NCBI GenBank assembly: GCA_905178155.1
Contig: CAJINV010000011.1
Span: forward strand, 2,011,939-2,075,938
Length of the DNA stretch: 64,000 bases
DNA from: Amoebophrya sp. A120
Taxonomy: Eukaryota > Protista > Dinoflagellata
Direction of reading: 5' to 3'
Shown in pieces: positions 6,395 through 50,359 of this stretch. Within the stretch, counting starts at the first letter, position 1; every line of letters starts with the position of its first letter. Below the pieces are notes generated by a model, which did not search any database, was not told where the DNA came from, and worked only from the letters and a program-made list of their open reading frames with translations. A program made the position numbers and the translations under genes.

Positions 6395-9300
6395 TTACAT
6401 GACCGCACAGAACCCGGACGAGGCCCCCGACCCGCTCTTTTTTCCGCCTCCCATGAAAAAGGCACTCGAACTGTGCGGCAGCTCGGCCGAGGAGTCCATT
6501 CCCGCACCGACAAATCGGGTGAAATCCGCCCCGTCACCATCGATCCCCGCGAGCAGTTGCAGCTCCTCGCCGCAATCCGCCGCCGCCTTGGAGAGTTTCG
6601 GCCACACCGCTGGGTCGTCCTATGCAGAGGAAAAAAAGTGTTTAAGTGTAAGAACTTTGGAGGTTGAGTAGCATCACAAATTCGCTTTGCGTTTATAGAA
6701 AAAACCTGTCAACATGATGCGCAGGTAGCACGTCAAAACGCGTATGGTCTGACCCTATGACCACGCACATCCAGCATGACAAGCGTGACTGTCTCGCATC
6801 ATCTTCTGCAATACAAACTTACACTTACACAGTTTTTTTCTTGCGATACGTCCGGGTGTTCGTCTAAACGGCTGTGGACGTCGCCTTTTTCCACCACGTA
6901 TTGTGAGGAATAATCCCCCCTCCCCATATTGAAAGCGCATCCTTCTGAAAAACTGTGATGCGGATTTGTGGCCACAAATCCTGTCTGTCTTGCATGCAAG
7001 CAGATCCAGAGAATCCGCCGCATTATGCAGGCGGTTTGTGATGCTGTTGGCCCTAGACCATCGACGTTTTTCATGCTAGGAGCCTACGCCAAAACGTCGT
7101 GGCTCAGGCTTGGCGTATGCCTGCAATCCTCTATTAGAGGATTGCAGACAAATCTGCACGACAAATCTGATTTGTGTACTGAAATCCAGCATCAGAAACT
7201 TCTTTTTGCTATGGGGTGGGGGGATTTTTCCTTTTGATACCACGCCGTGGAATTTCAGTTGGTCCATCTCCAAATCGTAACACCGGCGCCGGTACGATAC
7301 CCGAATGTCCGTTACGTTGGACTTGTCCGTATCCAAGGAAAAGAGTGTTACAGTTACACATTTGTTGGGCAATCACAATCAGCAACACAAACTTTCTCTG
7401 CATGACAGCCGAAACTTGCAATGCAGAGATCATTAGCAAAAACACCTATGAAATCAAGTACCTGAGCACATTCGGCATGACAGACCTTGTCTCTCTTGCT
7501 TTGTCTGCAACACAATGTGTAACTGTAACACTTTTTTCTTCCCGTAGTCCGAGTGGTTCCAGTACTTTGACTTGTGCTTCCACGACTTGTAGACGCAATT
7601 CGGCCCGAGGTATCAAAGTGAAAAAAGCCCCCGCCCCATATTCAACAGACAATTTGTGTTGCTGGATTTGAGTACGCAATTGAGCTTTGTATTGCAGCAA
7701 GAGCTTGTCAGCATATTTTAAGTCCATGTGGGTACGCATCCGGGTCGCAGCTGAGCATGAGCAACAAGTCTGACATAGGCGGAAACGGACGACAGACTCG
7801 CTGCACAATGCGCCACATGGGTGCCGTTTGCCTTGTACGCAAGACAAAGTTGATTTGTAGTCACAAATCAGCATCACAAATCTCCTGTTCGATATGGGGA
7901 GGGGAGATTTTTCCTCACAATACGAGGAGCTGCTCCTTTACCTGCGGGTCCAGCCCGGACTGGAGGACGGAATTCTGCGCGATCTCGCAAATGTCGGTCA
8001 GGGACATCTTCCAGTACTGCTGCGCGATGGTGTACTCCTCTAGCAGCGGGTGGTCGGTGGCGTGAAACAGGAGTGGCTATCAAAAGGAAAATAAATCGTC
8101 CCTCCCCATATCAAAACGAAGTTTCTGACGCAGGACTTGCGTAGACAAATCAGATTTGTCTTGCTGGAGAGGATGAACACAGGCCCATACTAAGCCTAAG
8201 TGGAAAGGCTTTGCTCTAGGCGTCTAGCATGAGAAGCGTCCGCGCTGTAGGCCCATCAGCATCATGAGCGCAAACCTTCTACACAATGCTGCGGAGCTTG
8301 TGGAGTTGTCTTCTTGCAAGACAGACGCGATTTGTGGTCAGCTCAAATCAGCAACACAAATTTTCGGAATAAACGTACCTTGTTGATATTTATGGGGAGG
8401 GGGGTTTATTTTCCTCGCGATAGTGGCATGTCGGTCGACAGGCTGACGTTCAGGCCCCACCGGAAAAAGTCGTAGAAGGGAGAATTCGGCAACCGCTGGA
8501 ACAGGGCGTTGTTGGACAACGGCGACAGGGCGATCCCGATCTGGGACAAGTAGTAGACGTACGCCAAGTATCAAATGCAAAAATGTCTGGGTCTGGGAAC
8601 TTGCGATGCTAAAATGTGGATGATAGAAACAGTTCCGAATGCATCAACCCAGTTTGACAACTTTCCAGAACGCTTTCTCATAGGGAATCCGCATCAGAAA
8701 CTGCGTTTTTGCATGCACAAAAGAGGCCGCGACTTTTGTTGGTTATGCAATGCAGATTTCCTACTTATGGAAAGCCAGCATGACAAGTTCCAACCTTCCA
8801 GACCCAGACATATTTGCAATCCATACTAAGGGCGGACTGGACTTCAGCGTGAGTCCGTGGGAAATGCCGTTCGCCAGCAAGTACCCGCAGGCCAAGTGGT
8901 CCACGGACCCGGTCATGCCGCAGTGCGGGCGGAAGGCGAGCGAGTTGAGGCCGAAAGACTCCCGGATCTTGGAGAGAATGGACAAATTTGCGTAGAGGAA
9001 GTAGAGGTAATACCGGTAGTTGACGTGCTTATGCGTCTTCTTCGTCAGTTTCGCGGGGTCCGAAGGCCCGGCAGTATGCATTGCAAAAGTATCGTACTCG
9101 TAGTTGTGATTGCAATCATGCATTACAAATTTCTTTGTCATGTCAAGATAAATCCGCATTAATCTCTCATGCAGAGGAAATTTGTAATGCACTTTATACT
9201 AGTACGATGCTTTTGCAGTTCATAGGCAGCGAAGGTCGTCGACATGGACTCCTCTCCCACGGAGTCGAAACCCGACACGTGGTAGAGCAAAAAATCGTAG

Positions 9301-12300
9301 AGCGCCGGATCCGAGTCCGGATTCAAGGTGACCGCAATCAGGGGCTGGAACAGGTTTCCCAGCCACTGTTGGAAGCTGTTGCACACCTGAAACGACCGCG
9401 GAATCTGCACCAGAAACTTCGCGTTTTTCCTGGACGCGGCGGCCCCTGCGGCTTCTCCTTTGTGCGTCGGGAAATTTTTCTGGACCCACTGCGCGACCGA
9501 GGTCCATTCCTGCTTCGAGGCCCCCGTGACGGTGATGCGAAACTCCGAGTAGGTTTGCTTGTGCGCCTTGTGCAGCGCGGCATTCGAGACCAGGCGCCGC
9601 TTCACTGGGCTGCTAGGAGTTGTTGCTGCTTTGTTGGCTGTTGCTGATGTTGTACTTCTAAGACGTTCATTATCTTCGCGCTCGTCACTGTTGCTATTTC
9701 CTCGGGTTAGCACCACCGACTTGAGAATCTCCGCGAAAAAATCTTGCTTGTTCATTTCCCCGACGCCGTCGCTCTTCGACGTAGATGTTGCACTCGGCGT
9801 CTTCATTAAGACCGGCTTCAGAAACCGATCCCGCAAGCGCCGACTGCCGTACACGTTCTTTTTTTGTTGAAACAGTTCAAATATCAAATGCAAAAGTGTC
9901 TGGCGGGTCTGGAAGAATGCAAGTTTGTCATGCTTGTCTGGCACGACTCGAGAATCTGTGTTGCGTAGGCACGAAAGAGCCCTCTTAACTGTCATGCGAC
10001 AAGGCAGTTTGCCATGCGGAATACGTAAGACATGGCAGCCACAAAATTTGTCATGCATACCTGCGTATTGTGGCGCGTCAATCATTCACTTTCAGCATTA
10101 CAAGTTTCCAGACCCAGACATTTTTGCATTTCATATCAAAGTTCTGAAACAAACTCTCGTCGGCCTGCACCTGCAACGCGTCGACCGTCATCTGCTATCA
10201 AATGCAAATATCCCTGGAAGATGTCTGGAAATTTGTGATGCTGATTGAGAAAGACGAGGGCGCTCCTTCAATTGACGGCCAAGCATAACAAGTGTTGGAG
10301 GTACTACAGTGTTAATGTCTACTCTACACGACAAAGCGAGCTTCTGCATGACAGAAAAATCAAGCTTTTCATCTTGGGTAACGTGCATGGCAGATTTGCG
10401 AATCATGCAAGCCAAGCATGACAAACCTTGCATCTTTCCAGAGGTGGACCCAGAGGACATATTTGCAGTTGATATCTGCTCCTCTTTCTCGATCCCCGCG
10501 TGGGCAAACTCCTCCCGCAAAGTGGACGGGTGCCCAGCGTCCTATTCGGAGTAAAAACGTCCCCACCCCAGAGCTGTCGCGCAATTCTTTTTTTTTTTGA
10601 TTAGGCCCCATTTTCATGTATGTATTGTATGTGATTGTGTGACGGCGGGAACGGCACCCGCCCGTTGTGCTTAATAATGCGCTCCCACGCGCGAATTTCC
10701 TTTCATCTTTTGCATCACCATCATTTTCTAAGCTAGGAGCCGGTGTGCGTTACTTAACATGTGAAATCTAATCTCACGAACACCGAGCTGTCGCGCAATT
10801 CTGCATGCCAAAAAAGTTTCTCACGCGGAGCCCTATGGGAAGCATTTTCTATTCGTGTTGTCGAATCTGTGATGCTAGAACCAGCATGCTATGCTAGATC
10901 TGTGATGCTTCTGAATTACAATTAGCTAAACAGGATTAATACATTACGAGGACAAACTTGTCATGCCAGACAACCAAGGCTGGCTGATTTGTCTAGCACG
11001 TTTCCCATCTTGACTCTTGTGTGGGGACGTTTTTAATCAGGATACGTCCTGCCACTTCTTCTTCGTGAACTCCAGCAACTCCCGGGCTGTCATAGCGCAC
11101 GCGAGCTTCACCTGCGTGTCCACTTTGCCGATCGAGTAAAAGTCCTGCTTCGTCATCTCAGCAGAGTCCTGCTCCAGCTCGTGGTTTAGGAACATGTGCA
11201 AGTCAAAAAGCCTTTCCAGCAGCTCCAACCGTTGGTAGCAGAAGGACCGGACTGCCGCAGCCTGCACGATCTTGCTGGTCGTTGCCAAATCGTATCCACA
11301 GAAAAAAACCCATCCACATCCATTTTTTGCATGACAAACACGTGACTTGATAGGTGTCTTACATGACAAATTGGACGTGGATGTGTTTTTTCCTGTGGAT
11401 AAATCGCTGAGAAATTCTTCAAAGGACGGCACCTTCAGGTTCTTTGTCATGATCTGCGAGGAAGATGAAGAACCTCCTGTCAGCGTCAAGATGCCCTTCG
11501 GGAAGGAAAACTTCAAATTTTTCATCGACCCCGGTTCCTGGGTCGGCGGTGCACTGTTATGCATTGCAAATATGTCTGGGTCTGGACGAGTGTACTTAAC
11601 TTGTCACGCTACATCTGGATCGTGGAAAAATTTGTGTTGCATGATTAGCAAAAGAGGTCCACTTTTGAGCAAGTTTAGAGGCAGTTTCTCAGACAGGAAA
11701 GGCATGAGAGAGATCTCACAGAACCTGTCATGCTAGGCCGTGCATGCCAGACCGCCTGGGTCATGGAAAACCTGCATGACAAACCTAGCAATTTTCCAGA
11801 CCCAGACACTTTTGCATTTGATAACTGTTGCTGGTCGTGTCCGCGATTTTGACCGCGTATTTTGACGTTTGCTCCTGCTCCTTAGGACTTTGGTCTTCTA
11901 AATTTTTCGTGACCCCGGAAACGAGCGTCCGGATTTTTTTCGCCCCACCGGTGGTCTCGTACAATTTCGAGCGAAAGCAGTTATGCATTGCAAATATGTC
12001 TGGGTCCTCTGGAAGGTTGGAACTTGTAATGCTAGCTTTCCATACCTAGGAAATCTGTATTGCATACTTAAGCTTGACCAACAAAAGTCGCGGCCTCTTT
12101 TTCACAGAAACGCAGTTTCTCATGCGGATTGCCTATGAGAAAGCGTATATGCAAAGTTGTCATGCTGGGTTGCATTCGGAACTGTTTCTATCATCCACAT
12201 CCTAGCATCACAAGTTTCCAGACCCAGACATATTTGCGTTTGATAGCAGTACTTGCCCCGCAACGCGATCAGGTGCAGCAGCGCCCGGCAGATCACCTTC

Positions 12301-15300
12301 CGCTGCATCAACTCCGTCTCCGTGAAAAGCTGCTTACTATCGGGCGACACGTGTATCCTGGAATAGTGCTTTTCCTTCGTGGCGAGCGCCGCCAGCTCCT
12401 TGTATTCTATCCCGTGTAAAAACGTCCCCACCCCAGAGTGGTCATGATGCAGATTCGCGATCACAGGAAGATTTGTAATGCGCATCTCTATGAGAGGCAT
12501 TTCCAATCGTGTTTTGGAATGTGTAGCGCTGTAAACAGGATGAGCAGATAGATTTGTGATGCGGTTGTCCTTGCTCACAAGCACTACACTACGGACTGCA
12601 ACTTGTCATGCGTGGCTCCCAAAGCTTCTGGATTTGTGTTGCTAAGTTCCCAACTTGACTACGGGGTGGGGACATTTTTACATATGATATATTCCTGGGC
12701 CCGCTTTCGCATCAATCGGATTTCGTCCAGTTTTTGCGCGTCGGTGTTCGCCGTCCCGACGGAAAACACGGAGGAAAGGCGGTTCTCGATCCCCGTGGGG
12801 CTCTGGTCCTTATCAAATGCAAATATGTCCGGGTCTGGAACATTCCGAGACTTATAATGCTCTGCTAACAGGAGAGAAAGATCTGTCATGCATGTTGCGT
12901 TACCGCGCTACCTCTTTGCAATGCAAAAACGCTCTTTCTCATGCAGTTTACGCAATACCTAGTCGAAGCAGCAACTTGTCATGCGCGTCCCCGTATTGGA
13001 GGTTGCTCATGATCCACTAACTAGCATCACAAGTTTCCAGACATCCAGACATATTTGCAATTCGTAGTCCTCCCCCTCCAGCGACTTCTTTTTTTTCACG
13101 TCCGTGATCACCCGCTTCGCCATATGCTGAGCAAAAACATCCCCACCCCAGAGTCAAGAAGGGGATTTTGCAACAGAAACCTAGAAGTTTTGGGAGGACT
13201 CACACATCACAAATTGCGGCCCGTATTGTAGTGTAGGTTAGCAGGGACAAACGCATCACAAGTCCATCTACTTCACCTGGTTACAGCATTACAAATGCCA
13301 GAACACGACTAGAAATGCCTCTCATGCTCCTAGGGATCCGCATTACAAATGCTCCTGTCATTGCGAATCTGCATGACAACTCTGGAGGGGGGACGTTTTT
13401 CCAAATGATAAGCCACGTGCTTCATGATTTTCGCGCCAAAAGCGGTCTCGGTCTTCTCCACTGAATCCATGTGCATCGCCAAGGCGTCCTTCAGCGTGGG
13501 CTTCACGTGCGGCAGCCCCGGGAGCTCAATCTGCTCCAGATTCAACGTGCGCAAAATCGAAAACAAGCGGTCCATATCAAGTGCAAAAGTGTCTGGGTCT
13601 TGAAGCTTGGAACTTGTGATGCTAACGCTGGACTCTAAAAAAATCTGTATTGCATGACCAGCAAGAGGAGCCCAGTTTGTGCTACGTGAGGAGGGTATTT
13701 GCCATGCGGGATAGGCATCAGGAAGGCCTCTAAAAATATGCGATGCTAGATATTGCATTACAGAAAGCCTAAGTCATGCAAAATATGCATGACAAACCTG
13801 GCAACCTGCCAGACCCAGACATTTTTGCAATTGATAGTCCATCAGGGTCTCGTACCGGTAGCGACACCGGATGTCCGGGATGTTGGTCACGTCGGGGTTG
13901 TATGCATTGCAAATATGTCTGCGAGGTCTGGAAACTTGTGATGCTGGGTGGCGTATTGTGAGGAGGCCAGAAGTGCTGGCTCGGCATGACAAGTTGAAGT
14001 CTCTGAGCTCCTGCGTGTTGCCTATTCTGCATGACAAACTGCGTTTCTGCATGACAGAAAAATGGAGCTGCTCTTGGGTAACGTGCATGAGAGATTTAAG
14101 AGTCATGCCAGACAAGCATGACAAACATGCATTCTTCCAGACCCAGACATATTTGCACTTGATAGGTTATTCGACCGGGGAAACGGGAACAAGTTCCACA
14201 GGCTGGTACCCAGCTGCTTCGCTTTGGTCGCGTCCGAAAACCCACCCTGGAGGCAGCTGTTCCGCGCGATCTCGCACAGGTCGATGTTGCTGTACTTGTA
14301 CAGCTGTTTTGCGACCTGGTACTCTTCCAGAAGAGGTTCTTCCGTCTTGTGGAACTGCATGGGGTCGTCCGTGGACTATCCTGAGTAAAAACGTCCCCAC
14401 ACCAGAGTCAGGATGGGGATTTTGCAACACAAACCTAGGAGCTTTGGGAGTCACGCATGACAAGTTGCACTCCGCGGTGTAGTGCAGGTTAGCAAGTGCA
14501 GCCGCATCACAGATTGATCTGCTCATCCTGTTCACAGCGTCACAAATTCCAATACACGATTGGAAATGGCTCTGATGGGGATGCGCATTACAAGTCTTCC
14601 TGTCTTTGCAAATCTGCATTACAACTCTGGCGTGGGGACGTTTTTACTCAGGATATGGACAGGGAGACGTTCAGGCCCATGGAAAACAGCATATGGATGT
14701 GTCAGGATCGAAATCGACAAAGTTGAAATGATTTGCCATGCATAAAATGCAGCCCACAAAGTGCCTGTGTTGCAGAGTAGGCACAGGAGGCAGATTGTGA
14801 GCCTTTTGAGGGGTAGAAACTGAGCTGCTAAAGTAGCATGACAAAGAGCGTCTTCCTTACCCAAACAGCATCACAAGGTGGATTTCGGCTCTACCCAAAT
14901 TTGTCATGCGCCACTTGGAAACTGGGACTGGGTTACTTACACCTGGAATCCATTTTATGCATCACAAATCATAATTTCAACCTTGTCGATTTCGATCCTG
15001 ACACATCCATACAGCAGGTCAAAGGGGTTGTCCTTGTACGGAACGAAGAGCGCGTTGTTCGACAGCGGGCTCACCGCGCACCCGACCTGGCAGAGGTAGT
15101 ACAGGTAGCACAGGACCGTATCCACTGCAAATATCCCTGGATGTTGTCCCGAAGAATGCAAGTTTGTCTTGCGTGGCTACCATGACACACTTCAGTCTGT
15201 CATGCACGTTACCCAAAAGCCACGGCTTTCCGTCATACAAAAACGCAGTTTGTCATGCTGGATAGACAATCCCTGGCATTATAGCTCAGAAATTTGTCAT

Positions 15301-18300
15301 GCTGAGCCGTCATCTGTATCGTCCGAATCAGATTCGCCAGTCAGCATCACAACTTTATTCCCGACGTCCAGGGTGGATATTTGCAGTTGATAGACCGGCG
15401 TGTTGGACAATTGAATCCCGTGGTTGACGCTGTCCGCGGTCAAAAACGCGGTATGCATTGCAAACATGTCTGAGTCTGGATTTGTGATGCAGGACTTCAA
15501 GGACAACAAGATCTGTATATGCATGAATACCATTGGCCAGATTTATTTTGTCGTGCTGGATGGCAGGCAGTTTGTAATGCTAAACACGAATGAATCCGCA
15601 AGGAGCCGAGGGAAATTTCTCATGCCGTTATGCCGTACAAGCAGCAAGTTTGCAATGCAAGTATCAGCAACACAAGTTTCCAGACCCAGACATTTTTGCA
15701 TTTGATACGCGGTGTTTAAATGCAACGGCGACCCGGACTCCCCGCAGTGCGGGCGGAACTTGAAGGTGTTCAGCCCCAGCTTCGAGCGGAGGGTGTTCAA
15801 CACGTACAGGTTTGCGTGCATGTAGTAACACCAGTAGGCGTAGGGCGGGTTGTCGCTGTCCGTCGTTTTCTCCTTCGGCACGTCCTTCCCAAATTTCGGC
15901 GGTGGGGGGCAGTATCACAAGAAAAAAGTGCTACATTGTGTTGCAACCCCAGCATGACAGACCACCTCTGTCATGCCAGACATGCTTGATGTTCCGAGCT
16001 TCATGTAACACTTTTTTCCTGTGATAGGCAGGTGTCCATGTTTATCCAAGAAAAAAACAGTGTTAGTGTAACTTTCTTTGATTGCCAGCATCACAAATTT
16101 GCTCTACATGACAGAGAACATCTGTCATGCGTGGCTTGTAAGGGAAAACACATGTGAAAAGAGGACTTCATGGCTGTCTGGCATGACAGGTGTAACTCTG
16201 TTGCATATTCTGCATTACAGAGTTACAGTTTTTTTCTTGCATAAGGTTTATCTCCAACTTCGACTCGTCGTCCACGGAGTCGAACCCAGAAGTGTGGGTC
16301 CTATCCTGTGCAAAAGTATCGCACTCGGATTGCAGTCATGCATTACAAATCTTTTTCTTAGGGTAAATCAGCATGGCAAATTTTATTTCTCATGCTGAGG
16401 AAATCTGTAATGCAATTAGTATACGAGTACGACCCTTTTGCACTAGACATAGGTCAAAAATTCCGCCAACTTCGGGTTCGCCGCCGGGTTGATCGTCACT
16501 TCGAAAAGCGGCTGAAACACGTTGTCCAGTAAATCTTGAAAGGTTTCCACGAACCCCAATTTCTTGAACACGTTAAAAACCCGCGGACACTGGATCATCC
16601 AACGATTGTTTATCCAGGAAAAAAACTGTGTAAGTGTAAGTTTCTTGGAGGAATCGCATCACAAGTTTGCTCTGCATGACACAGAAAACCTGTCATGCGT
16701 AGTACCTAGTACGTGAAAACTACACGCACGAAAATTGCCTCTGAGTGATGCATGTCCAGCATGACAAGTGTAACAGTTTTGCGTTTTCTGCAACACAAAG
16801 TTACACTTACACAGTTTTGTTCTTGGATATTGTTCTTGGAAAACAGCTGGTTGTCCACCACCCAGTTCGCCAAATCCGTCCACTCCTTCTTATGAAACTG
16901 TCAGGATCGAAATCGACAAAGTTGAAATACCTTGTAATGCATAAAATGGATGAAAGTTGTAACCCAGTTTCCAAGTGGCGCATGACAAATTTGGCTAGAA
17001 CCGATGAAATCCAGTTAGTCATGCTGTTTGGGTAAGGAAGACGCCTTTTGTCATGCTACTTTAGCAGCTCTACTTCTTCTACCCTCAACAGGCTCACAGT
17101 CTGCCTGTCTTGCGTACTCTGCAAGACAGACATTTTGTGGGTTGCATTTTATGCATCACAAACTACTTATTTCAACTTTAGCGATTTTGAATCTGACACT
17201 CCCATACTTCTTGTTGGTGCCGTAGATCGACACCCGGTACTCCGTAAAGATCGCCGTGTGCTCGTCGCGGTCCAGGATCTCTTTCGTCAGTTCCGCAAAA
17301 TACTTGCCGTTCAGGTGGTTGGAGGATTTCAAAAACACGGTGCGCAGATTATGACTTGCTCAAACGTTACAATCTCAAACGTTAAAATAGAATCTGGAAT
17401 TTGTGTTGCACGATGAGCATGACAGACTCGCACAGCGTTCCACCTTTTGCAATACAAATTTAGCCAGATTGTAGTGGGGTTTGGGGCTCCGGAACTTGTC
17501 ATGCGCAATCCTATGAGAGTTGGCTAGATGATGCACTCTTGCATCACAGATTTCCATATTCTAGTGCAACGTTTGAGATTGTAACACCTGAGCGGGTTAT
17601 ACAGATCACTGTTGCCGAAGGGGTTGTACTTCGCGTTGAAGTGGTCAAACCGGTCGAACAGATTTTCCTCTGCCTGTATCCTGAGTAAAAACGTCCCAAC
17701 CCCATAGTTATCGTGCGGATTTGCGATTAAGTACAGGAAGATTTGTAATGCACATCTCCATGAGAGGGAAAGGTATTTCCAATCGTGTTTTGGGGTTTGC
17801 AATGCTGTAAACGGGATGAGCAGATGAATTTGTGATGCGGCTGCACTTGCTAAACTGCACTTCTACACTACGGACTGGAATTTGTCATGCGTTGCTCCCT
17901 GAGCTTCTGGGTTTGTGTTGCTAAGTTCCCATCTTGACTATAGGGTGGGGACGTTTTTACAGAGGATAGCCTGCACGTCCAGACTATCCACGGTCATGGC
18001 GTCGGCGGAGTGGATCCCGGACTTCGCGAACACTTGTTTCAGCGTCAGCCCTATGCATTGCAGAAATGTCTGGGTCTGGAAAAGTGGAACTTGTGTTGCA
18101 TGTCGTGCATTCCTGAAAAATCTGTGTTGCACAGCCAGCAAGAAAGTCGCTACTTTTTCGTCCTGCAAAAACGTAGGTTGTCATGCGCGCTACGCACCAG
18201 CCGGCGTCAAGTATACTTGTCATGCTTGGCTGCACTTGAGAGCGCCAGTTTTATATAAACTTTAGCATCACAAACTTCCAGACCCAGACATATTTGCATT

Positions 18301-19230
18301 TGATAAGCCCCTCCTTCGTTTTCCGGTCAACCAACACGATCTCGTCGCCGTGTATCAAAAGGAAAAAGCCCCCCTCCCCATACCGAAAAGGTATACTTTC
18401 GGAAATTTGTGATGCTGATTTGTGGCCACAAATCGCGTCTGTCTTGCAAGAAGGCAAACTCAGAAGGCCCCCCGCATTATACCGGTGGTTTGTGATGCTG
18501 TTGGGCCTACAGCATGGACTTTTGTCATGCTGAGCGCCTAGGCCAAAACCTCCCCCACTCAGGCTTGATGTGGGCCTGCAGTCCTCTACTGCAAGACAGA
18601 GCGGATTGTGGCCACAAATCTGCATCACAGATTTCCGTTTTGATATGGGGAGGGAGCATTTTTCCTTTTGATACCGTGCTCCCGGTACTTCCGTTGAATG
18701 AAGTCCAGCAGGTGGTTGGCCGTCATGGCCGCGGCCAGGTGCACGTGGGTATCCACTTTCGCGAGGCGGTAGAAATCCCCCTTCGACTGTTGCACCTGCC
18801 GCTGCTCGCGTGACTGACTGTTCAGCAGTTTGTGGATGGAAAAGCTCCGGGCGAGCAGCCCGAGCTCCCTCCTGCAGAAGCTCTTCACGGTGCCGGACGT
18901 CGAAATATTCCGGAGTTTGGCTTCGTCCTGGCAGAACTCGTGAAACAGCGCCGGCGGCAGGATTTTTCCCGTGCTGTTTTCGGCGGTGCTGTCGGCCACA
19001 AGTTCCTGGACCGTGAAAACCCCATTCTCGCACTCGTAGGAAAAGGCATCCGCGGCCGGCTTTTCGAGGTGTTGTCCCCCGCTCGCTGCGGTTGATGCGA
19101 CCACCTGGTTCGGAGGGATGTAAAGGTACTTGGAGCGGAGCTTAATCGCATACACCACGTCCGCACAGGCTTCGGCCGCGCCCGGTGCATTTTCCTCCCC
19201 GGTGACCACGCACCGCACGTACTCAGACAT
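6395..19230 (-). CDS. AMP deaminase with two tandem AMPD domains (N-terminal intact, C-terminal degenerate); 31 TIR-element introns
   Basis: Domain 1 has [37 protein letters not shown] and SLSTDDP. The frame continues without a stop through the linker (about 12400-13570). Domain 2 has [28 protein letters not shown] and SLSTDMP. Confidence 0.88.
9075..9224. mobile_element. Introner TIR element, family F (short; GCAAAAGTATCGTACT)
   Basis: 150 bp, direct repeat GGCAG. Relatives: 646-761, 16302-16451, 34650-34807, 34889-35007, 60255-60399, and a copy near 42233. Confidence 0.9.
10588..10784 (-). mobile_element. retroposed insertion (poly(A)-tailed, 17-bp TSD) nested in a family C introner
   Basis: GAGCTGTCGCGCAATTC is duplicated at 10571-10587 and 10785-10801. 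A T11 run abuts the left copy. Confidence 0.8.
11293..11401. mobile_element. short (109 bp) introner element, stop-free and frame-preserving
   Basis: TATCCACAG.AAAAAAC / GTTTTTT.CTGTGGATA, direct repeat AATCG. 109+5=114 nt, and the ORF track reads straight through it. Confidence 0.88.
14377..14655. mobile_element. Introner TIR element, family C (TATCCTGAGTAAAAACGTCCCCAC)
   Basis: Perfect 24-bp TIR, direct repeat TGGAC. Relatives: 10543-11044, 12408-12689, 13123-13410, 17677-17968, 45539-45997, and copies near 27656, 41525 and 43332. Confidence 0.93.
14692..15011. mobile_element. Introner TIR element, family D (TATGGATGTGTCAGGATCGAAATCGACAA)
   Basis: Long perfect TIR, direct repeat CAGCA. 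Relatives: 16891-17206, 35519-35831, 55611-55919, and an eroded copy ending at 48993. Confidence 0.93.
16611..16829. mobile_element. Introner TIR element, family E (TATCCARGAAAAAAACTGTGTAAGTGTAA)
   Basis: TIR with direct repeat TTGTT. Relatives: 6621-6848, 7330-7546, 16043-16243, 26842-27053, and a short copy at 15913-16026. Confidence 0.9.
17350..17601. mobile_element. Introner TIR element, family G (GCTCAGGTGTTACAATCTCAAACG)
   Basis: TIR with direct repeat CAGAT. Relatives: 41904-42170, 42983-43226. Confidence 0.9.
18353..18673. mobile_element. Introner TIR element, family B (CCCCTCCCCATA subterminal)
   Basis: TATCAAAAGGAAAAA..CCCTCCCCATA inverted at both ends, direct repeat CCGTG. Relatives: 4528-4848, 6899-7239, 7611-7922, 8078-8422, 23628-23943, 41156-41469. 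Confidence 0.92.
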
Positions 19231-22726: not shown

Positions 22727-25700
22727 CTAGTCGTCCTCCGGCAGGTAAAAGTGGAAGAAATCTTCCGACAGTGCTCGTTGCGACGAGAGTCGGTATGCAT
22801 TGCAAATATGTCTGACGGTGGTCTGGAAATTTCATTTTGTGTTGCTGATAATACTTTCATTGCATAGTGGGAGGTCCACGTACCACATAACAGCGTCAGA
22901 GATTTTTTCGCGAAGCCCATACGTATCCATATGTACTAAAACGCTTCCAGTACGACAAAAAAACAGAAACAAAAAGTGGCCGATTGCCTTCCTGCATTAC
23001 AGATTTTCTTACTCGTGAGATCTCGCATCACAAATCGTCCAGACCGCCCAGATCGACGATATTTGCAATGCATACTCGGTTCAGCGGATCCACTGTCAAG
23101 CACCTCTCGCAGAGGGTCCGAAACGGCCGGGCGTGGCCGTTGTCGTGCCCTTCGTAGATGAACCTGGGGATAATTAAGTATTTCAACGGATTTTTTATAC
23201 CGTTTATTTGTGTTTAATATTCCGACATAGGATCGCTCCTCGACCTCGTCGACCTATCCTTCTACATGAAACAAGAAGCCCCACTTCAACAAAAACACCA
23301 GGATAGTGTACTTATTAACTAAAAGATAACGTACGGGAACAACGAACTAGTACAAAAAAAAACCAATGTACTAGCACAACTCAAAAGTAAAGATATTCGA
23401 AATCTCGTCTCAATCTCGTCTCTACTACAATCAGAAGCATCGTAATCGTATAAATGCATATACAAATTTGAATTTCCAACTCAGCATGAGAAATAAAATC
23501 TGTAATGCTGATTTACCTCAAAAGAATGCATGACCATGATTGCAAGTAGAAATAAAAAAATACTCGTCCAGTCTTCCCAACACGAGGGGTTGGCAGGGTT
23601 TCACCTCGTAGGTGTAGTACTTGCCGTGATTGTAGGGAAAAATTCCCCTTCCCATATCGCAAAGGAAATTTGTGCTGTTGTATTTGAGTACACAAATCAA
23701 CTTGTATTGCTAGAAGGCCAAGAGACAGAGCTGCTCCCTCGTTTGCAGGCCATTTGTCATGCTTTCTCGCGTTTCCAGTTGCTTCCTGTCATGCTGAAGA
23801 CGAAAGGCTTTCCCGGCGCGCCGGCCAGCACTCCAGTCCGCATCTCTTCCCTTCTAGCATGACAGCGCTGATTTGTGGCCACAAATCTGCATCACAGATT
23901 TCCCTTGTGATGTAATGGGGAGGCGGGATTTTTGTTCTTAATAGCCGTCACTCGAGCGTGCCGGATTCCGCCGGTGTCGGAAGGCCCGGCGGAACGTGTA
24001 TCAACTGGAAAAGTGTCTGCGTCTGGAAGAATGCAACCTGTGATGCTAACTTTGGACTCTAAAAAAATCTGTATTGCATGACCAGCAGGGGGAGTCTAGT
24101 TCGTGCTACGCAAAGAGGGCATTTGTCATGCGGAGTAGGCAGGACGAACCCCCCTAAAAATCTGTGATGCTAGGTCGTGCATTACAGACATCCTGGGTGG
24201 TCATGCAAACTATGCATGACAAACCCGGCAACATTCCAGACCCAGACATTTTTGCAGTTCATAACGTGGAGTCCCGCGCCACGCGGAGAAAATCGTCGCT
24301 GAAGCCCCCGTATCAAATGCAAAAATGTCTGGCTCTGGAACGAAGCAACTTGTCATGCTAAATCCGAATCATGTAAACATCTGTGTTGCATGATTCCCAA
24401 AAGCTTTCCACTTTTGACCTAATCGAGAGGAGGCAGTTTCTCATGCAGGATTATAGGCATGATAGAAATCTCAGAGAATCTGTCATGCTATGTCCTACAT
24501 ACCAGACCTCATGGCTCATGCAAAACGTGCATGACAAGTCTAGGATTCTGCCAAACCCAGACATTTTTGCATTTGATACCCCGCCTATGGTCTCCATCTG
24601 CAGCAGCTGCTGCAGATCCCGCGGGTTACTCGACCGGAAGTCGCGGCTGCGTCCGCTACCCGAACTCCCGCCGCCACTGCTGGTCAAGTTCAAAATGTCA
24701 CCAAGGTATCTGTATTTAAGTGTGTTGATCAAGTGAGTTTGTGTTTGATATATAATTTTAAATTTTCGATACTTCTTCTTCTGCAAGAACTCATCGACAC
24801 AAGCTGCAGGAGCATGATCGTAGTTATACTTCTTCAAGATGAAAATTGCAGCTACAAACATATCATGATCCAACTGAAACATCACTCAAAAGATCAGTAT
24901 ACAACTCCATCAGTATGCATCCGAAAGAGTAGACGTCCGTGCGCGCGTCCCACTGGACGCCAATCATCACTTCGGGACTGCGGTACTGCCGGGTGGAGAT
25001 CACCTCGCTCTTTCGGTCCACGTCCTCAAAGATAGCCCCGCCGCAGTCGATAATCTTGATGTTGGCGTACCGCGGGCGGCGGTACTCTCCGTCCTCGAAG
25101 CACCCTTGCACCAATATCAACTGCAAAAGTGCCTCCGTCTGGAAGAGTGCCAGATGACTTGTCATGCAGGTTTTCCGTGACCGATGAGGTCTGGTATGTA
25201 GGACATAGCATGACAGATTCTACTGTGAGAATTCTATCTATCACGCCTATCCTGCATGAGAAAGAACTGCCTCGCCTCGATTAGGTCAAAAGTGGAAAGC
25301 TTTTGGTAATCAAAATCATGCAGTACAGATTTTTACATGATTCAGATTTAGCATAACAAGTTGCTTTGTTCCAAAGCCAGACATTTTTGCATTTGATAAC
25401 CAAGACCCCCTCGCGGTTCCGACGGCTCGGGGACACGCGGCGGCCCAGGAAACTGTACCGGTACTTCCGCTTCCACCGGGTGTACTCATCGCCCCCGACT
25501 TGCTGGGCCTCGTACTCTTTCCAGCACCGTTTCGGCGGGTCTGCAGTGCGGGTTGGTGAATACTCGAACAGAATATTCTCCGGCTTCAGGTCGGTGTGCA
25601 CGCATCCCAGCTGATATTTAGATCGAGAATTCTTTACAGTTCAGTGCGGCAAATTTTATTTTACCGATTTTATTATTTTTGTTTATATCCAGAATGAAGG

Positions 25701-28700
25701 GTCATGCAAAATTGGAAATTACGCTCCGTTGCGGCCTCTACGTTGGAGCAGACGAACTAGTGATTAAGTATGTTGTTGGTGCAGAAATTTAATATCTTCG
25801 AGGAAAAAAGCAAAACTGTACGTAACAATAACAAAGAAACGTACGTTGTGCATGAAGGTTAAGGCATCGAACCCATCCTTCCCAATCTTCTGAATATCCC
25901 GCAAGTACATCGGGCGGTACTGGTTTCCGGTCAAGTGATCGTACCTGATTTTTCGTATATATCATTTGGGTGACTCTTTCAGTTCCATATTACTCCCCCG
26001 CACGCAATAAACTGTCCATCGGTAAAATAAATGCTCGCCATGATCTAGTACCATCTTCAGCATCAGATCATGCACTTCTACAGCATTTGATCATTGCGTC
26101 CGACTGCCAACTTCATCAGCACGTCTTGGAACACACAACCAATGCGCGTCGAAAAACAGAAAACAATATCAGTACAAGCTGACGGAAAGTTTCTCGAAGA
26201 CCATTACAAAGTGCGACTCCTGGTTGGGACCGGCGGGGTGCATGAACTGCTCCACTAGGTGGACGATTTTGTGCTTTCCCTCGCAATATGGATTGCAAAT
26301 ATGTATGGGTCTGGAAGAAGGGAACTTGTGATGCGCATTTCACAACACACAGAAATCTCTCATGCATAGGCAGCAAAAGATACCCACTTTTTGTCGCCAA
26401 AGTGGGGGATTTGTCATGCGGATTAGGCATTGCAGAACCTTCTCGAAATCTGTGAGGCTAGGGCTTCCATGCCGCACCCTCTGTGTCATGCGAAAACAGC
26501 ATGACATCTTCCAGACCCAGACATATTTGCACTTGATACGCAAACGCCGTCCAGGAACCGACTGGATTCGTCCTGTAACCGCTGCAGTATGCGGAATTCG
26601 TCTTCTGCGTCGGTCCGGTACTTCTCGCCCGACCGAATCACCTTGGCCGCGTAGGACTTTTCTTCCTTGAGCCCCCGCGCCTCTCGCTCCTCCGGGGTCC
26701 CCTCGAAGCTCACCTCGATCACGCGGCCGAACGTGCCGTCGCCCAGATGCGCCCCGATCCGCCACTTGCTGTCCGTGCCCAAAAAGTTGAGGTTTGCAAA
26801 CTGGAAATGCTCGATGTCGTCATTGCTGTTGCTGTGACTCGTATCCAAGAAAAAATCTGTGTTAGTGTAAGTCTTTTGGGAAAACAGCATCACAAGTTTG
26901 TCTGCCATGACAGGACAAACTTCTTGCTATGCGTAGATACAAAGGGAACACACATAGGAAGCGAGCCAGACATGCATGTCGAGCATGACAAGTGTAACTG
27001 TTTGGCATGTTCTGCATCACAGATTTACACTTACACAGTTTTCTTCTTGCATAACTCGCCGCCCGATCGTGGTCTTCATGCTCCTCGTCGTCGTCGTCGC
27101 GCCCGCTGCGCTATCAAATGCAAAAATGTCTGGTTCTGGAAGGAAGCAGCTTGTAATGCTACCTTTGGATTCTACACAAAATCTGTATTGCATGAACAGC
27201 AAGAGAGTCGCAACTTTTGCTACGTGGAGAGGGCATTTCTCATGCGGTATGAGCATCAGAAAGCCATCGCAGAATCTCTGATGCTAGAGCATGCATCACA
27301 GACCTTATGGGTCATGCAAAATCTGCATGACAAACTCCAGCATTCTTCCAGACCCAGACATTTTTGCAATTCATATGCGCCTACTGCTCCGGCTGTACCT
27401 GCTCCTGCGGTGGTGCGACCGGGACCGGCGACTATCCTCCTCGCGTTCTTCGCGATTGTAGTTGCGGCGTCCGCGTCGTGAGTCGGCGTTGCCCCGGGCT
27501 GCAGCACCAGCGCCGCCCCTCCGCTCTGACCTCCTCCGCCGGGAATCATCGGCATGCTCTACGCGCCGCGCTCCCAAGGATCTCGCACGGCTCGCCCGAC
27601 TTCTTGGTACGCTCCGTCGCCGCCGGTCGTGCTCGACAGAGAACCGCGCAGCAGTTATCCTATGTCAAAACGTCCCCACCCCATAGTCACAAATTTGGAG
27701 TCGCAATGTAGTCCTGTTTGAGGTACTTCAGCACCATCACAGATTTAGTATATCATGCTGATTGGCGCATTACAAAATCCAAGACACGGCTGGAAAACAC
27801 TTCTCATGGGGCTCCGCATGACAAACAGTTTGAGCATGCAGATTTGCATGACAACTCTGGGGTGCGAACGTTTTTACACAGGATAGCAGCATCACGATCT
27901 TCAGCGTCCCGCTCCCGCTCCTGTTCCCGCCACTCCAAGGAGACCGGACGCATCTCCACGTCCTCGGCTTCGCCGTGCAAGAGTCCTGCAGCTCCGTGCT
28001 GGGGTCCTGCTTCTGCATCTTCACGGCCATGTTCTACTTCCTCCCGCCCCAGAAGCTGCTCGGGCTGCTCCTGCTGCTCGTGAAGAAGATCTTCATCCTC
28101 ATCCTCGTCGTCATCATCATTTCTCGGATTGATCAAAAACTCGTCCTCCTCCTCGTCGCTAATGGGGTCGTCGTCGTCGTGCTCCTGGGGGTCATCTTCC
28201 GAAATGTTCTCCCCGTCGCCGGCCTGCTCGGGCGAAAATGATAAAGCGTTCTCGCCCTGCTCCTGCTCTCCGCGAACCGCCACGGGGCTGGCGCTCAAAC
28301 TCAGCGACGTGTTTCCCCGGGCACGACGATCGTTTGGTGCGATTGCTTCCTCCCCGTCGAAGATGTTCTCGATGTTCTCGTCCAGCTCCGCGTCCTCGTC
28401 CTCCATTGGCGCTGCATCATCATCATTTTTATCCTCCTGCTGTTCGTTTATTGACAAAGACCCTCGATGATCTACTCGGGAACCACGACCGCTTGCGCTT
28501 GCGGAAAACCGTTCTAGTTGTTGTCCTTGTGCTTCTCGCCGAGGAGTGCTTCTATCGTGGTCCTCATTAATGGTGCCTCTATTTCTCCTGTACAAGTTTC
28601 TGGTGCTCCCGTCCGCGCTGCGATTGTTGGGGCTGATCTGGAGCGAGTTGATGTTGATGTTCGCTTGAAAATTATTTTGTGCGTCTTCATCGTTATTTTT

Positions 28701-31635
28701 ATCCTGGTCTAAGTTGTTGTGCTGCAAAAGTCCTTGTGGTCCCCTTCCGTGCGAAGAACCCCGTCGACTGCTGTTGTTCCCGCGCGGACTTTGGTTATTG
28801 GCCGCGTCGTATGCATTGCAAATATGTTTGGGTCTGGAAGAATGCAACTTGTGATGCTGCATTTGGAAACTACAAAAATCTGTATTGCATGAACAGCATA
28901 AGAGGCCCAGTTGTTGCCACTGCGAGAGGGCATATGTCATGCGGTCTAGGCATCAGGAAGCCCTCACAAAACCTGTGATGCTAGGGCATGCATCACAGAC
29001 GTCAGGAGCCATGCAAAATGTGCATGACAGACCTTGCATCCTTCCAGACCCAGACATTTTTGCAATGCATACGTCGCGGGACCTCGCCCGCTCGGCCTCT
29101 TCGGCGGCCGCAGCTGGCGCTGGTGGTGCTGCACGGGGACTGAGGAAGAGCTCGCCACCCGCTGCGTCGCTCGCGCGCCGGCTCTTGTTCGATGGAGTGG
29201 TGGTTTGCTTCTGCTGCTGCTGCTCTACAACTTGTCCCACGGCGCCCGGGGCTGTTTTTTCAAAGTGAAAATATTGCTTACAAAACAAAAATGGAGATGC
29301 TTTTAATTTCATAAATGAATTCAAAATCCTCGATGATGTAGTTCCTGTTTTGTTTCATCAAAAAACATTTTCAAAATACCGGCCCCTCCTGTATCGTTCT
29401 CCCGCAGCACCGGCAGTGCCGACGATGCGAGTTCTTCCGCCATTTTTCCGGTTGCAGTGTCCTTGTCTTCCACACTGCTCTTCGCGCCTCCAACCACCGC
29501 GACGACGTTCGGCGAACTCTTTCCCGATTTCAGCATTTGCAGGGCCTCCCCCACTTGCTTCGCGACCTTCGACCCGTGCAGCTGGTCGTGCACTGCTGCT
29601 GCGGCACTACTTGAGGCGGACGCGGCAGCAATATTCTGTGTAGTGCCCACAGCTGAAGAACTTCTGTGCGTCCCCGACGAGTTCCCTTGCCGAGAAAGGT
29701 TGGGCAACTGAAAAGAGCGGTTTCGCTCAGACGGCGAGGAGACCGGCGCGGCTGCACCGATGTTGTTTTCATTCGCAGTATTTCCACGTCCTTGTTGCGG
29801 ACTTTTCTTAATGTTCTCGCCGCGGCCAACTGTCGTTTTTTTGTTCGTGCTGCCGAGGTTTTGGTTTTCCTCTTCGTCTTGGCTCATGATCTCATCCGCG
29901 CCCAGGAGGTCCTCGCTGGCTTCGAAGCTTTCACTGTCAGCACCGTCAGGGTCGTGCTGGTCAACACCCGATTCTTGTTCTGGGGAACGATCGACGCGAC
30001 TGTGTGCGTCAGTACCAGCTGGACCTTCAACCGATTTGATTTTTGGATTGGAATCTTCTTTGAAAGAACAACCAATGCGACCAATTTTCTATTTCATCTG
30101 CCAAAAAGATCTAGGAGAGCAGGTGTGTCCAGCTGTAGAACTCCGCCGCTCTATAATTCCATAAATAAACAAAAGTTAAGTTACTTAAATTTTTACCGTC
30201 CACCCCCATTTGACCATTGTTCCCCTCTCGACGCCCTTGCACCTGCTGTTCCTGTTGTCGATCCCCCGCACCATTCTTGCCCTTCCCTTTCCGCTGCGGC
30301 TGCGCAGGAGCTCGTTGGTGGTTATTCGGACCACGGCCGTCAGTCGTGTTCCTTCTTGCATGGTTCCCAAAATAATTGCTGTTCCTCGCTCGGTTAATAT
30401 CATTGTTCCCGCCCGCCCGATTCCGATTGATGTTCTGGTTATAAGTATTCGTAGTGAAGAATCCCCGATTATGTTGGTCTTCGCGACGACCATGATGATC
30501 CTGATTCCGGTCATGATGATAACTACCCGCACCTCGTCCTGGCGACCTGTCGCGCCGGCGGGGGTTATGATCATTGCGACGATTGTTGTTAATCGGGTGG
30601 TAGTCTCCTCGCCTCCGACTCGTGCGCCCGCCGCGGGGGTTGTTATCATAGCCGGCGCGAGAATAGTCGTCACGATGCTGGTGCTGCTGATCACGTCCGC
30701 CACGGCGGTGATTATCCCCGGCGCCACGACGGCGATCATGATCCTCACGGCGCCTCACCGGGATGTTGTTATTGTTCCCCGGAGGTCCACGACCTCGCTG
30801 ATTCTGATTGTACCCGCCCCGAGGGCCGCCCGGGAAATTGCTGAAACGTCTGTTGTTGTTCGTGTGGTTGTTGGTGCTAAACCGCCGGTGGTTCCCTCCG
30901 AAGTTCATCCCGCCGCGGGGTCCTCCTCGGTTCGACCCGGGCCTAGCTCCCGGTCGATCCAGGTTGTTCGTGCTTGGCCGAGGTAATAAAGCGGGGTTGG
31001 TGTTGTCATTGGCGTTGGTGCCGGTGTTGCTGTCGTTGTTGTTGTTTTCCCCGCACTGTGGATGTTGACCTCCCCCGTCTACTGGGCGGACGTTGTTATT
31101 GGTGTTGCTGTTGCTATTGGTACTATTGTTGTTATCAGCAGTCGGGTCCTTGTTTATAATTCCGTTGTCGTTTCTATCGACATTGTTCACCGGTACAACC
31201 GGGTTCTCTTTATTCTGCGTCTGCCGGCCGTCGCGGCCCACATTGTTCTGCCGATCGTCGCGAGTGGTGTTGTTGTTGTTCCTGTGCCGGTCGTTGTTCT
31301 GCCGAGACCGCGGGCGGTCGTTGTTGCCGCGATCCGTGTTTCGATTGTTCTGGTGGTTCTGGTTGCCTCCCTTATGGTGGTTGCCTAAATTGATTGTGGT
31401 TTGTTTTACTAAGTAAAAGAACGCTGAAATAAAATCCAATGTCTTGTGCAGGTGTAGCAAGGAGAATAGTTCCGCGCGCGCATTTTATGCATCACAAGTT
31501 CGCAGTGTTGAAACAGTTTTTTGGTACGAGACGTAAGAAGAACAAATCAATACCTCCACCACGGTGGTCACGCCGGTTAGAATGCGGCCGGTCGCGTCCT
31601 CCGCCGCGATGGTACGCGCGATCTCCGTACCCCAT
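22727..31635 (-). CDS. CLK/LAMMER-like CMGC protein kinase with a long low-complexity N/R/G-rich and RS-rich N-terminus
   Basis: Kinase motifs LGDGTFGRV, YAAKVIR, HTDLKPENIL, IIDCGGA, STRQYRSPEV and DVYSFGCIL. An RS tract lies near 27380-27580. There are 10 TIR elements plus several GT-AG introns (for example near 24710-24902, 25612-25844 and 25945-26175). Linkage of the N-terminal exons is less certain. Confidence 0.85.
23164..23563 (-). other. canonical GT-AG intron containing a decayed family F element
   Basis: GA|GTATTT...CCCAG|G restores the kinase frame. The interior 23421-23562 resembles family F, but its TIRs are eroded. Confidence 0.7.
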
Positions 31636-48664: not shown

Positions 48665-50359
48665 CTACGACGTTTCCAATCCCATCACTTCGGCGAAAAA
48701 TGCAGTGGAAGTGCCAGGATCGAAATCGTCAAAGTTGAAATAGTTTGTCATGCATCAAATGCGACGCAGAAATTGTCTCTATTTCAGAGGACGCAAGAGA
48801 GGCAGACTGTAAGCCTGTTGAGGGGTAAAAATAAGGCTGCTCAAGTAGCATGACAAAAGGCGTCGTCCTTACCCAAGCAGCTGCATGACAAACTGGATTT
48901 AGATTCCAACCAAATTTGTCATGCTCCACTTGGAAACTGGGTTTCTAGGCAAATTATTTCAACTTTGTCGATTTCGATCCTGACAGTTCCATAAACGCAG
49001 GCAGACCCGTAGCGAGCCGCTTCCCCGGGCCGACCGGCTTCACCGGCACACCGCAGACTGCCATGATGTCCACTTGGTGGCTATCAAATGTAAAAATGTC
49101 TGGGTCTGGAAGAATGCAAGTTTGTCATGCTTGTCTGGCATGACTCTTAAATCTGTCATGCACATTACCAAAGAGCCCCACTTTTCTGTCATGCAGAAAC
49201 GTAGTTTGTCATGCAGAATAGGCAACACCTAGAAGCTCAGAAACTTGTCATGCTGAGCCAGCAATTGTCGCCTCCTCATGATACGCCACACAGCATCACA
49301 AGTTTCCAGACCCAGACATTTTTACATTTGATAGTGGCTCATGTGTTGCTTGGCGGCGGCGCCACTGTCCCAAAACAGCGTAGCCCCGTACTCAATGGAG
49401 ACGTAATTGTGTTTTGTTCTCGGATGAGTTGTCCTTGGACGATAGACCTCATTGTTGCGGCATTCCATCCTAAATTCGCGCGCATTCCTCATCCTTTCCC
49501 GCACCTCTTGCTGCTCCAGATCGAGATTCAAGAACGTGCCCCCAATCCGGCCGAAAAGATGGAGTTGCGAACAAGCGGAACCCGGCTCCGGGTCGCGTGG
49601 CTCGGAGAGAGTCAGCTTGAACTTGGGCCGGGGGTCCGCCGGGTCGGTAGAGGGCAACAAGCGCACGGTATCGGTCAAATTTGTCAGCACGGAAAGCTCG
49701 CAACGACGACCAGGCGCATCGATCAGGGCAACAGAGAAAGCCAGCGAGCTCACATGTACTCCGAACGGAGAATAATTGTCAAACACGTTCTCGAGGCTGG
49801 CATATCCGATCGCCATTTTGCACCTCCGTTCGTCGGAGAGTGCTACCTTCACCAATTTTGGCGGCGGAAACCGGGCCGAAGTCGTGATTCTGAAATCTTC
49901 CAAAACAAATTGCTCTCCGCTCACTCCGACACGCGCGAGCTCAAGCTGCTGCAAAATTCGGGTCAGCGGCGATGAAATCTCTTCCGCAGAGGTAGAGGAC
50001 CTAGCCGGCTCGCACTGCAGAAAGGTCCATATCTTGCGCCCGACTTCTTGGGGCAAATAACAGAAAACCGCAGGATTTTTGCTCTTCAACCGCAGCTGCT
50101 GCTTCTCGAAGCACAAAAGTGCGGTTTTCACCAAGATAGCGTTCACCCGGCCCCAGGATCTCTTGCTCGTGTTCTGCAGCTCAGCTGCTTCGATCTGGTG
50201 GTATAACTGCTCCATCGAGAAGTCTTCAGGGGTGCCGTGAAAAACGTCGCAGGGTTCATTCTTGGCGATTCCGGTTGCAATGTGCAGAAAATTAGCCACA
50301 GAAGTCAGTGTTCTATGCCGAGTACGACAATATTCCACGTTGCATTTTGCTGCAACCAA
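48665..50359 (-). CDS. hypothetical protein (5' end uncertain)
   Basis: A 345-aa ORF continues in frame across TIR element 49082-49333 and a partly eroded element ending at 48993, to a stop at 48665. No family recognised. Confidence 0.55.

Follow-up and report, generated by a model that had tools for sequence, protein, structure and literature searches.

How can transcripts be freed of inserted elements that lie in them in either direction? This question is raised by a repeat-dense stretch of 64 kb from the dinoflagellate Amoebophrya sp. A120 (contig CAJINV010000011.1, positions 2,011,939 to 2,075,938; the whole stretch is called the window below), whose minus-strand genes are interrupted by introner elements with inverted ends and a flanking duplication of 5 nt. 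A preliminary description of this sequence had proposed that such elements are removed irrespective of their orientation and that structure guides their removal. The analysis reported here shows that elements of both orientations are absent from likely-RNA contigs, and that the junctions that reveal the cut are compatible with a single register. The cut rule is very probably directional and sequence-based, whatever the enzyme, and we favor, with a probability of about 0.55, a relaxed U2-type spliceosome that would read the symmetric element ends.

Introner elements and their orientation

A search of the window for inverted ends with a flanking duplication (detection filter of at least 3-4 matching positions) gave 85 candidates, of which 71 were retained by eye and 14 low scorers discarded; a scan with a library of ends added eight elements, two of them from the discards. 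The resulting 79 elements are 109-502 nt long, and the 5-nt duplication is perfect in 62 of them. TAT is the terminal triplet at 148 of the 158 ends and is followed by variable bases and an A-run, A being present at positions 11-13 in 76-92%. Clustering on the interiors places 66 of the 79 elements in 10 families, with fully consistent orientation signs. All elements were treated as lying in minus-strand genes, and the minus-strand frame is open across the junction in 78 of them. The exception, at 58593-58863, has a duplication with 3/5 matching positions and no open frame at the standard junction; its site is possibly untranslated or shifted.

The introner elements of A120 have been described as having a TAT start, an A-run, direct repeats of 3-5 nt, inverted repeats and non-canonical ends (PMC7789003). 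Since the ends found here are of this kind and three exons of the window match A120 proteins at 100% identity, the elements belong to this known class, with which they share TAT ends with an A-run, the 5-nt repeat, the organization in families and a removal that is not GT-AG (PMC7789003).

Three pairs of copies in opposite orientation had been singled out in the preliminary description:

8569..8825, minus strand: introner element of family 0, orientation +1; duplication CTTAG/CTTGG, mismatched at its fourth position; intron inferred at 8826-8565
11982..12245, minus strand: introner element of family 0, orientation -1; perfect 5-nt duplication
13901..14164, minus strand: introner element of family 0, orientation +1; partner of 49082
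49082..49333, minus strand: introner element of family 0, orientation -1; in the gene of protein P0025
24311..24578, minus strand: introner element of family 0, orientation -1; in the kinase gene
25115..25398, minus strand: introner element of family 0, orientation +1; in the kinase gene

All six coordinates coincide exactly with the ends of elements flanked by a 5-nt duplication, and alignment confirms that the three pairs are reverse complements. Global identity in the same orientation and as reverse complement is 0.61 and 0.85 for 8569/11982, 0.59 and 0.86 for 13901/49082, and 0.60 and 0.83 for 24311/25115. When 45 nt are trimmed from each end these values become, in the same order, 0.53/0.82, 0.53/0.85 and 0.51/0.82, with local scores of 31/211, 22/227 and 20/226. 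Since the reverse-complement match persists in the trimmed copies, the inversion is internal and not an effect of the terminal repeats. The pairs had been called near-identical, which is too strong for an identity of 83-86%; the 28-mer cited as shared is part of a 30-nt exact match with two copies in the window.

Both orientations are present in 9 of the 10 families of the window, where informative within-family pairs comprise 81 of the same and 88 of opposite orientation. The count per family that had been suggested as a check is even in the main family, family 0: 14:17 in the window and 73:67 in an independent set of metagenome stretches carrying an exact family-0 end (134 stretches reported, 132 of them retrieved, 4 overlapping ones removed). 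For family 1 the independent set gives 16:6 (p=0.05). Insertion orientation is random.

Removal of elements of both orientations

The host genes are on the minus strand, as had been stated. The gene across 49082 is that of P0025, and the other noted elements lie in two genes:

6398..19230, minus strand: AMP deaminase gene (AMPD), protein P0001 of 1518 aa, with two tandem deaminase regions and 31 elements
22730..31635, minus strand: protein kinase gene across 24311 and 25115, protein P0026 of 1566 aa, with 10 elements and 7 GT-AG introns

Removal of the 31 AMPD elements, each with 5 nt, leaves a single open reading frame over 19266-6398, and the spliced model, read from its first Met, shows 0 differences from P0001 over 1518 aa. 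A contig of 5116 nt from run X1 covers this gene and lacks all 31 elements, in both orientations; the gaps between its pieces (480, 0, 118, 847 and 989 nt) are exactly those of the model. Elements 8569 and 11982 both belong to AMPD, as proposed, being joined by one open reading frame and one contig, and 11982 lies within the 847-nt interval. In this gene four families occur in both orientations (3:7, 3:2, 1:1 and 2:1).

Six further joints are seen directly, five of them in four of four runs and one in three of four. Each joint skips the element and 5 nt, with one junction variant per site in every run showing it. For element 49082, removal is based on the open frame and the annotated protein P0025. 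Over 6200-26100, no exon is covered by the raw-read runs X8 and X9. Run X1 is guessed to be RNA, its depth over 19480-20807 being 0.2-0.9 versus 48-59 in the DNA-like run X5, whose contigs read through the elements with even intergenic depth. The elements are absent from likely-RNA contigs in both orientations, and with the exact lengths found in AMPD the proposal of orientation-independent removal is upheld.

These data bear on two explanations that do not involve RNA processing. Precise DNA excision in transcribing nuclei by a domesticated transposase, like that of ciliate internal eliminated sequences, is quite improbable. A symmetric transposase would naturally be orientation-blind, a staggered join that is symmetric could, if read from the template strand, resemble a fixed register, and contigs drop rare variants, so that rare excised DNA is possible. 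However, the X5 contigs run through the elements at even intergenic depth where X1 is near zero, each site has a single junction variant in all runs showing the joint, and the constraint on the end bases follows the direction of transcription (see below). False introns, created when reverse transcriptase switches templates across a hairpin with direct repeats at its sides, are even harder to accept. A hairpin with direct repeats is the usual setting of this artefact, and the read evidence consists of cDNA-type contigs of one sample; on the other side, the conserved enzyme of 1518 aa requires that all 31 elements be removed, its alignment with the orthologue of strain A25 (867 of 1489 aligned residues identical) continues across the junctions, and template switching would leave both the selection on end bases and the non-homologous junctions unexplained.

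Position of the cuts

The number of upstream duplicated bases that are kept, k, is revealed by a mismatched duplication and hidden by a perfect one. Imperfect duplications are present in 17 window elements, seven of which, including 8569 and 13901, provide contig junctions. The other five, and one element placed by annotation, are:

22794..23074, minus strand: mismatch at position 5; contig piece end 22789, Leu in P0026; downstream base kept
35205..35476, minus strand: mismatch at position 3; joint 35199/35477 in 4/4 runs; register 3-5
35519..35831, minus strand: mismatches at positions 3 and 5; joint 35514/35833 in 4/4 runs; register 3-4
37440..37677, minus strand: mismatch at position 5; joint 37435/37679 in 4/4 runs; register at most 4
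38110..38330, minus strand: mismatch at position 2; joint 38104/38331 in 3/4 runs; register 2-5
16043..16243, minus strand: mismatch at position 4; Leu and not Met in P0001, upstream base kept; annotation only

At 8569 the contig piece begins at 8826 with no extra letters, so that at least four upstream bases are kept; the ends of contig pieces also bound k to at least 1 at 13901 and at most 4 at 22794. The sole value compatible with all seven junctions is k=4, with which the annotated proteins agree at 16043, 22794 and 48704. The intron therefore begins N-U-A-U and ends A-U-A-N-N-N-N, with A at -7. In Table S4 of Farhat 2021 the nine commonest non-canonical sites of A120 all start with NT, and those of A25, whose repeat begins TTA, all start with TT (PMC7789003); these sites are consistent with U at +2 and A at +3 in both strains.

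Two mutant copies depart from the standard junction:

23628..23943, minus strand: 5' cut 3 nt into the repeat (T-TAAG), 3' cut unmoved; 318 nt removed, the standard being 321
48704..48993, minus strand: copy ending in ACT; 5' cut at k=4, 3' cut delayed by 5 nt; 300 nt removed; annotation only

Only two junctions reproduce P0026 at 23628, and both remove 318 nt; the 5' shift explains why the contig has 580 nt and not the 577 predicted. At 48704 a single junction reproduces P0025, and its 3' cut lies six bases past the next A of an AT. Both copies suggest that each cut tracks its own dinucleotide, and neither the duplication nor the base of the stem. An element at L030:2321-2582 has ACA as its 3' end and an AT in the adjoining duplication; it resembles 48704, and its 3' cut may likewise be shifted.

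Purely structural or homology-guided removal, in which hairpin and direct repeat set the junction and base identity is irrelevant, would account for the 62 perfect duplications among 79 elements and for the fact that almost every case tested loses the element and 5 nt. The removals of 318 and 300 nt, however, ignore the duplication, and the register is fixed and directional; together with the strand-specific conservation described below, this makes such removal improbable.

Constrained bases at the element ends

Variation at the ends was compared in the window and in the independent set. In the latter, 351 elements were found by a detector that ignored both the strand and the first three bases; reversed sequence gave 3. 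The same detector recovers 74 of the 79 window elements. A further round with a larger library gave 345 elements and does not enter the counts. The host strand was called by a coding model that was correct in 67 of 68 cases with the gene left out. After dropping 57 elements with a small margin, 28 with a stop and 12 with locus disagreement, 254 were kept.

In the window, third-base variants are at transcript 5' ends (6/6) and first-base variants at 3' ends (4/4; p=0.005). The independent 254 elements show the same asymmetry, with 1 variant at the 5' end versus 7 at the 3' end for position 1, and 4 versus 0 for position 3 (p=0.010); in all 351, unfiltered, these counts are 2 versus 9 and 7 versus 0 (p=0.002). 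Pooling gives 333 elements with 1 versus 11 variants at position 1, 2 versus 3 at position 2 and 10 versus 0 at position 3 (Fisher p=3.4e-5). Mismatches in the duplications (79 in 1665 sites, 4.7% per site, 15.8 expected) provide a rough neutral yardstick, itself depressed by the detection filter; compared with it, two end positions look neutral (p 0.08 and 0.13) and the four others are depleted (p<1e-4). Constraint acts on the 5' U-A and the 3' A-U and leaves the two remaining end positions free. In the fixed register, U is present at +2 in 332 of the 333 elements, A at +3 in 331, A at -7 in all 333 and U at -6 in 330, with intron position +1 and the last two intron bases unconstrained.

Canonical signals do not account for the junctions. 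A GT/GC-AG register is available in 1 of the 79 window elements, and over the 333 elements in 16 on the sense versus 15 on the antisense strand; the duplication sequence shows no base bias, and there is no excess of AG. Strand-biased mutation was rejected as an explanation by argument, since of two A residues on one strand of the element that at -1 has 11 variants and that at -3 has none. An asymmetry at repeat position 5 in the window (TATGCAT, 3 versus 15) was not replicated (17 versus 26, p=0.22), and no strand-biased k-mer went beyond multiple testing except one 6-mer (p=1e-4 of 2003).

Proposed mechanism

The reading that we favor is a relaxed U2-type spliceosome, AG-independent and with its branch A at -7, for which the symmetric ends would serve as signals in either direction. 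Elements would be inserted in random orientation, probably by a transposase, with a 5-nt duplication, the pattern itself being observed. The 5' cut, judging from few junctions, would be made one base ahead of UA, leaving the exon with four duplicated bases and the intron with the start N-U-A, a GUA-like donor with a free first base; this start matches the GTA with which the GT-AG introns of P0026 begin (7/7). The A three bases from the element end, at intron position -7, would be the branch point, and the 3' cut would be measured from it without an AG, as the two mutant copies suggest, to fall four bases into the second duplication. Such a cut would remove one duplication, no more and no less, and restore the frame, which is the net result observed. 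TAT would hold both signals, with T-A serving the 5' end and the complement of A-T serving the 3' end. The choice of the UA and AU that are used is probably assisted by the hairpin or by the U-run of the repeat, an aid that is proposed because nearby AT dinucleotides are common and yet skipped. With respect to the machinery, U2, U4, U5, U6, SF1, SF3b and U2AF have been found in A120, while U1 snRNA was not among the components found (Farhat 2021, PMC7789003).

In its widest form, this reading would amount to an A120 splicing code without fixed terminal bases, composed of an N-UA site at the 5' end and a six-base ruler from the branch AU at the 3' end. TAT would encode both signals, one per strand, and any TAT...ATA transposon with a 5-nt duplication would be a scarless intron at any site and in any direction, in a truce between host and transposon served by a U1-less, AG-independent spliceosome. 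We put this formulation forward tentatively, at slightly less than even odds.

Several points weigh against the spliceosomal reading. All contig evidence comes from one sample whose RNA nature is a guess, the lower bound of the register is set by one contig junction (8569) and two annotated proteins, and the site pattern of Table S4 may be shaped by aligner choices. Intron position +5 is C in 216 and G in 102 elements, and G has no clear preference at +1. No branch consensus was detected: YTRAY in the last 60 nt occurs 162 times in sense versus 194 in antisense, and the branch-site test gave no sense excess of CTRAY or CTAAC. Only 1 of the 7 GT-AG introns of P0026 combines A at -7 with U at -6. 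Competing AT sites often lie 4-5 nt upstream without being used, and competing TA at 5' ends is not depleted, so that the dinucleotides alone do not define the cuts. Finally, pairing of stem positions 9-18 is predicted in 68 of 77 elements, without a difference between the strands, and 8 of the 11 terminal 3' variants retain a U-G wobble.

An A at -7 together with paired ends also recalls domain 6 of group II introns. A self-splicing, group II-like ribozyme with a bulged A near the 3' end is nevertheless hardly credible for elements of 109-502 nt whose interiors are family-specific and which function reversed; matches to Rfam families in the window were 0.

Predicted hairpin and pairing of the ends

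Since folding predicts the hairpin for 68 of 77 elements, a different enzyme stays alive as a rival of the spliceosome: a non-spliceosomal RNA endonuclease plus ligase acting on the terminal hairpin, with a staggered cut 1 nt outside the 5' arm and 4 nt outside the 3' arm and with contacts to UA and AU. This euglenid-like system, possibly releasing circles, corresponds to the idea of the preliminary description with a sequence read-out added, and we consider it unlikely, while giving it far more weight than the other alternatives. The predicted pairing, equal for both strands, speaks for it, as do the unconstrained last two intron bases and the unused AT and TA sites nearby, which demand extra positional information; moreover, U1 snRNA was not found in A120 (PMC7789003), and euglenid introns with paired ends are released as circles (PMC11282704).

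Selection on pairing, however, has left no sign. Across 30 repeat positions G-U and A-C occur 369 versus 372 times, with no wobble bias, and private changes affect both arms in 11 cases versus one arm in 423, which is within independence (upper bound 17) and shows no compensatory excess. The conserved end bases pair with free partners, and 10 of 10 third-base variants break the pair. Also against the endonuclease, the two mutant copies shift one cut only, and the 5' signal is that of the host GTA donors minus the G. Folding energy does not differ clearly between sense and antisense (-94.6 versus -92.5, p=0.07). The hairpin may help removal.

Complementarity of the stem is lowest at repeat positions 4-7 (42-76% versus 81-95% at positions 8-13), so that the signal bases would adjoin an internal loop. 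The fully complementary copies 14377 and 14692 are also removed.

The preliminary description had reasoned that introns are strand-specific, that only symmetric features could define the junctions, and that removal would be guided by structure. Its premise is incomplete, as introners in either orientation have been reported in Polarella and Aureococcus (10.1101/2020.10.14.339549). Symmetric signals other than GT-AG do stand; guidance by structure is not established. Because the ends are inverted, the transcript presents the same 5' and 3' sequences whichever way the element lies, and orientation blindness needs no structure. A conserved strand-specific signal in each orientation had been named as evidence to the contrary, and this is largely what is found: 5' U-A and 3' A-U, with their partners free.

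Other features of the window

The subterminal motif TTGTN(A/T)TGC or its complement is present in 77 of the 79 elements, across families, and points inward at both ends. It occurs 203 times in 20 kb versus 3 times in the remaining 43 kb, and is a candidate transposase-binding site. No element was retained in the long stretches 19300-22700, 31700-34300 and 53300-54900; since 78 of the 79 elements are in open coding frames, a link of their insertion or retention with coding sequence seems likely. Family 1 includes elements enlarged by internal inserts, at 10543-11044 (502 nt) and 45539-45997 (459 nt), and the removal of the former remains exact.

Decayed element-like sequence lies within GT-AG introns at 23432-23546 and 31431-31522. 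The intron 31553-31385 starts with GTATTGATT and ends with AATCAATTTAG, which resemble worn inverted ends, and ageing elements may become canonical introns. In run X9, about 300 raw RNA reads each at 15494 and 23074 carry an element end fused to foreign sequence, while the window exons have no cover; these reads would be abundant RNA from a related strain or from another locus with such ends.

With respect to the genes, the A25 orthologue of the AMP deaminase has 1791 aa. In the second deaminase region of AMPD the motif DSVDDES is changed to DSVGEES and HCGE to HCGM, and this region may be inactive or regulatory. A tandem repeat array with a repeated VNGQTPALPLL frame lies between two genes at 39239-40399.

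Significance and comparison with known systems

The way in which Amoebophrya removes its tens of thousands of non-canonical introns was still an open question in the 2021 paper and in a 2024 review. A single register with two conserved dinucleotides would turn an apparent lack of motif into one rule, which predicts the branch nucleotide to the base, explains insertion at any sequence and in either direction, and would correct gene models at mutant copies. If removal is spliceosomal, this spliceosome works without G at +1, without AG and, apparently, without U1, which bears on the minimal requirements of splicing and on the origin of new introns; if it is not, the rule describes the substrate of an unknown RNA cutting-and-joining enzyme.

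The elements themselves are already known, as are either-orientation introners with canonical sites in Polarella and Aureococcus. For A120, random orientation, a single register and the rule of UA and AU (-7) were not found in the text and supplement tables of Farhat 2021 or in the literature searched, figures, subscription papers and theses aside. In the text of Farhat 2021 that was searched, the word orientation is applied to genes only, and the position of the border is given as unknown or variable, in contrast to the single register found here (PMC7789003). The introner search of Gozashti 2022 admitted opposite orientation, whereas a 2025 study required the expected one.

The introners of Polarella glacialis and Aureococcus are also introns derived from DNA transposons, with duplications and in either orientation (Roy et al., 10.1101/2020.10.14.339549). 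However, they recruit GT, GC or GA plus AG from the element or the duplication, with an orientation bias (10.1101/2020.10.14.339549); the A120 elements share the creation of introns in either orientation and not this source of canonical sites, as neither AG nor G at +1 is needed, the duplication is unbiased and orientation is even. [quoted passage not shown] Unlike the euglenid introns, those of A120 show no selective signature of pairing and accept any base at +1. From group I and II introns they are set apart by the lack of a conserved ribozyme core, with 0 Rfam matches and interiors that are family-specific and reversible.

Fritillaria borealis has MITE-derived introns that are not GT-AG and an adapted U2 spliceosome (PMC11282704, PMC13326754). 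Its termini are nevertheless defined (AG-AC, AG-AT), U1 is kept and U2AF is duplicated (PMC11282704, PMC13326754), whereas in A120 the first and last intron bases are free. Compared with U2-type introns in general, the A120 elements lack GT(GC)-AG termini and a branch consensus, and have U at +2 with a purine at +3. The introns of Stentor coeruleus differ in being 15-16 nt long, in keeping GU-AG and U1 and in having no transposon ends (PMC9505925). Their conserved GUA start resembles the N-U-A of A120, and the A at -7 of A120 is paralleled by their putative branch A, which keeps a constant short spacing to the 3' end, is the tenth of 15 positions and lacks a branch consensus (PMC9505925).

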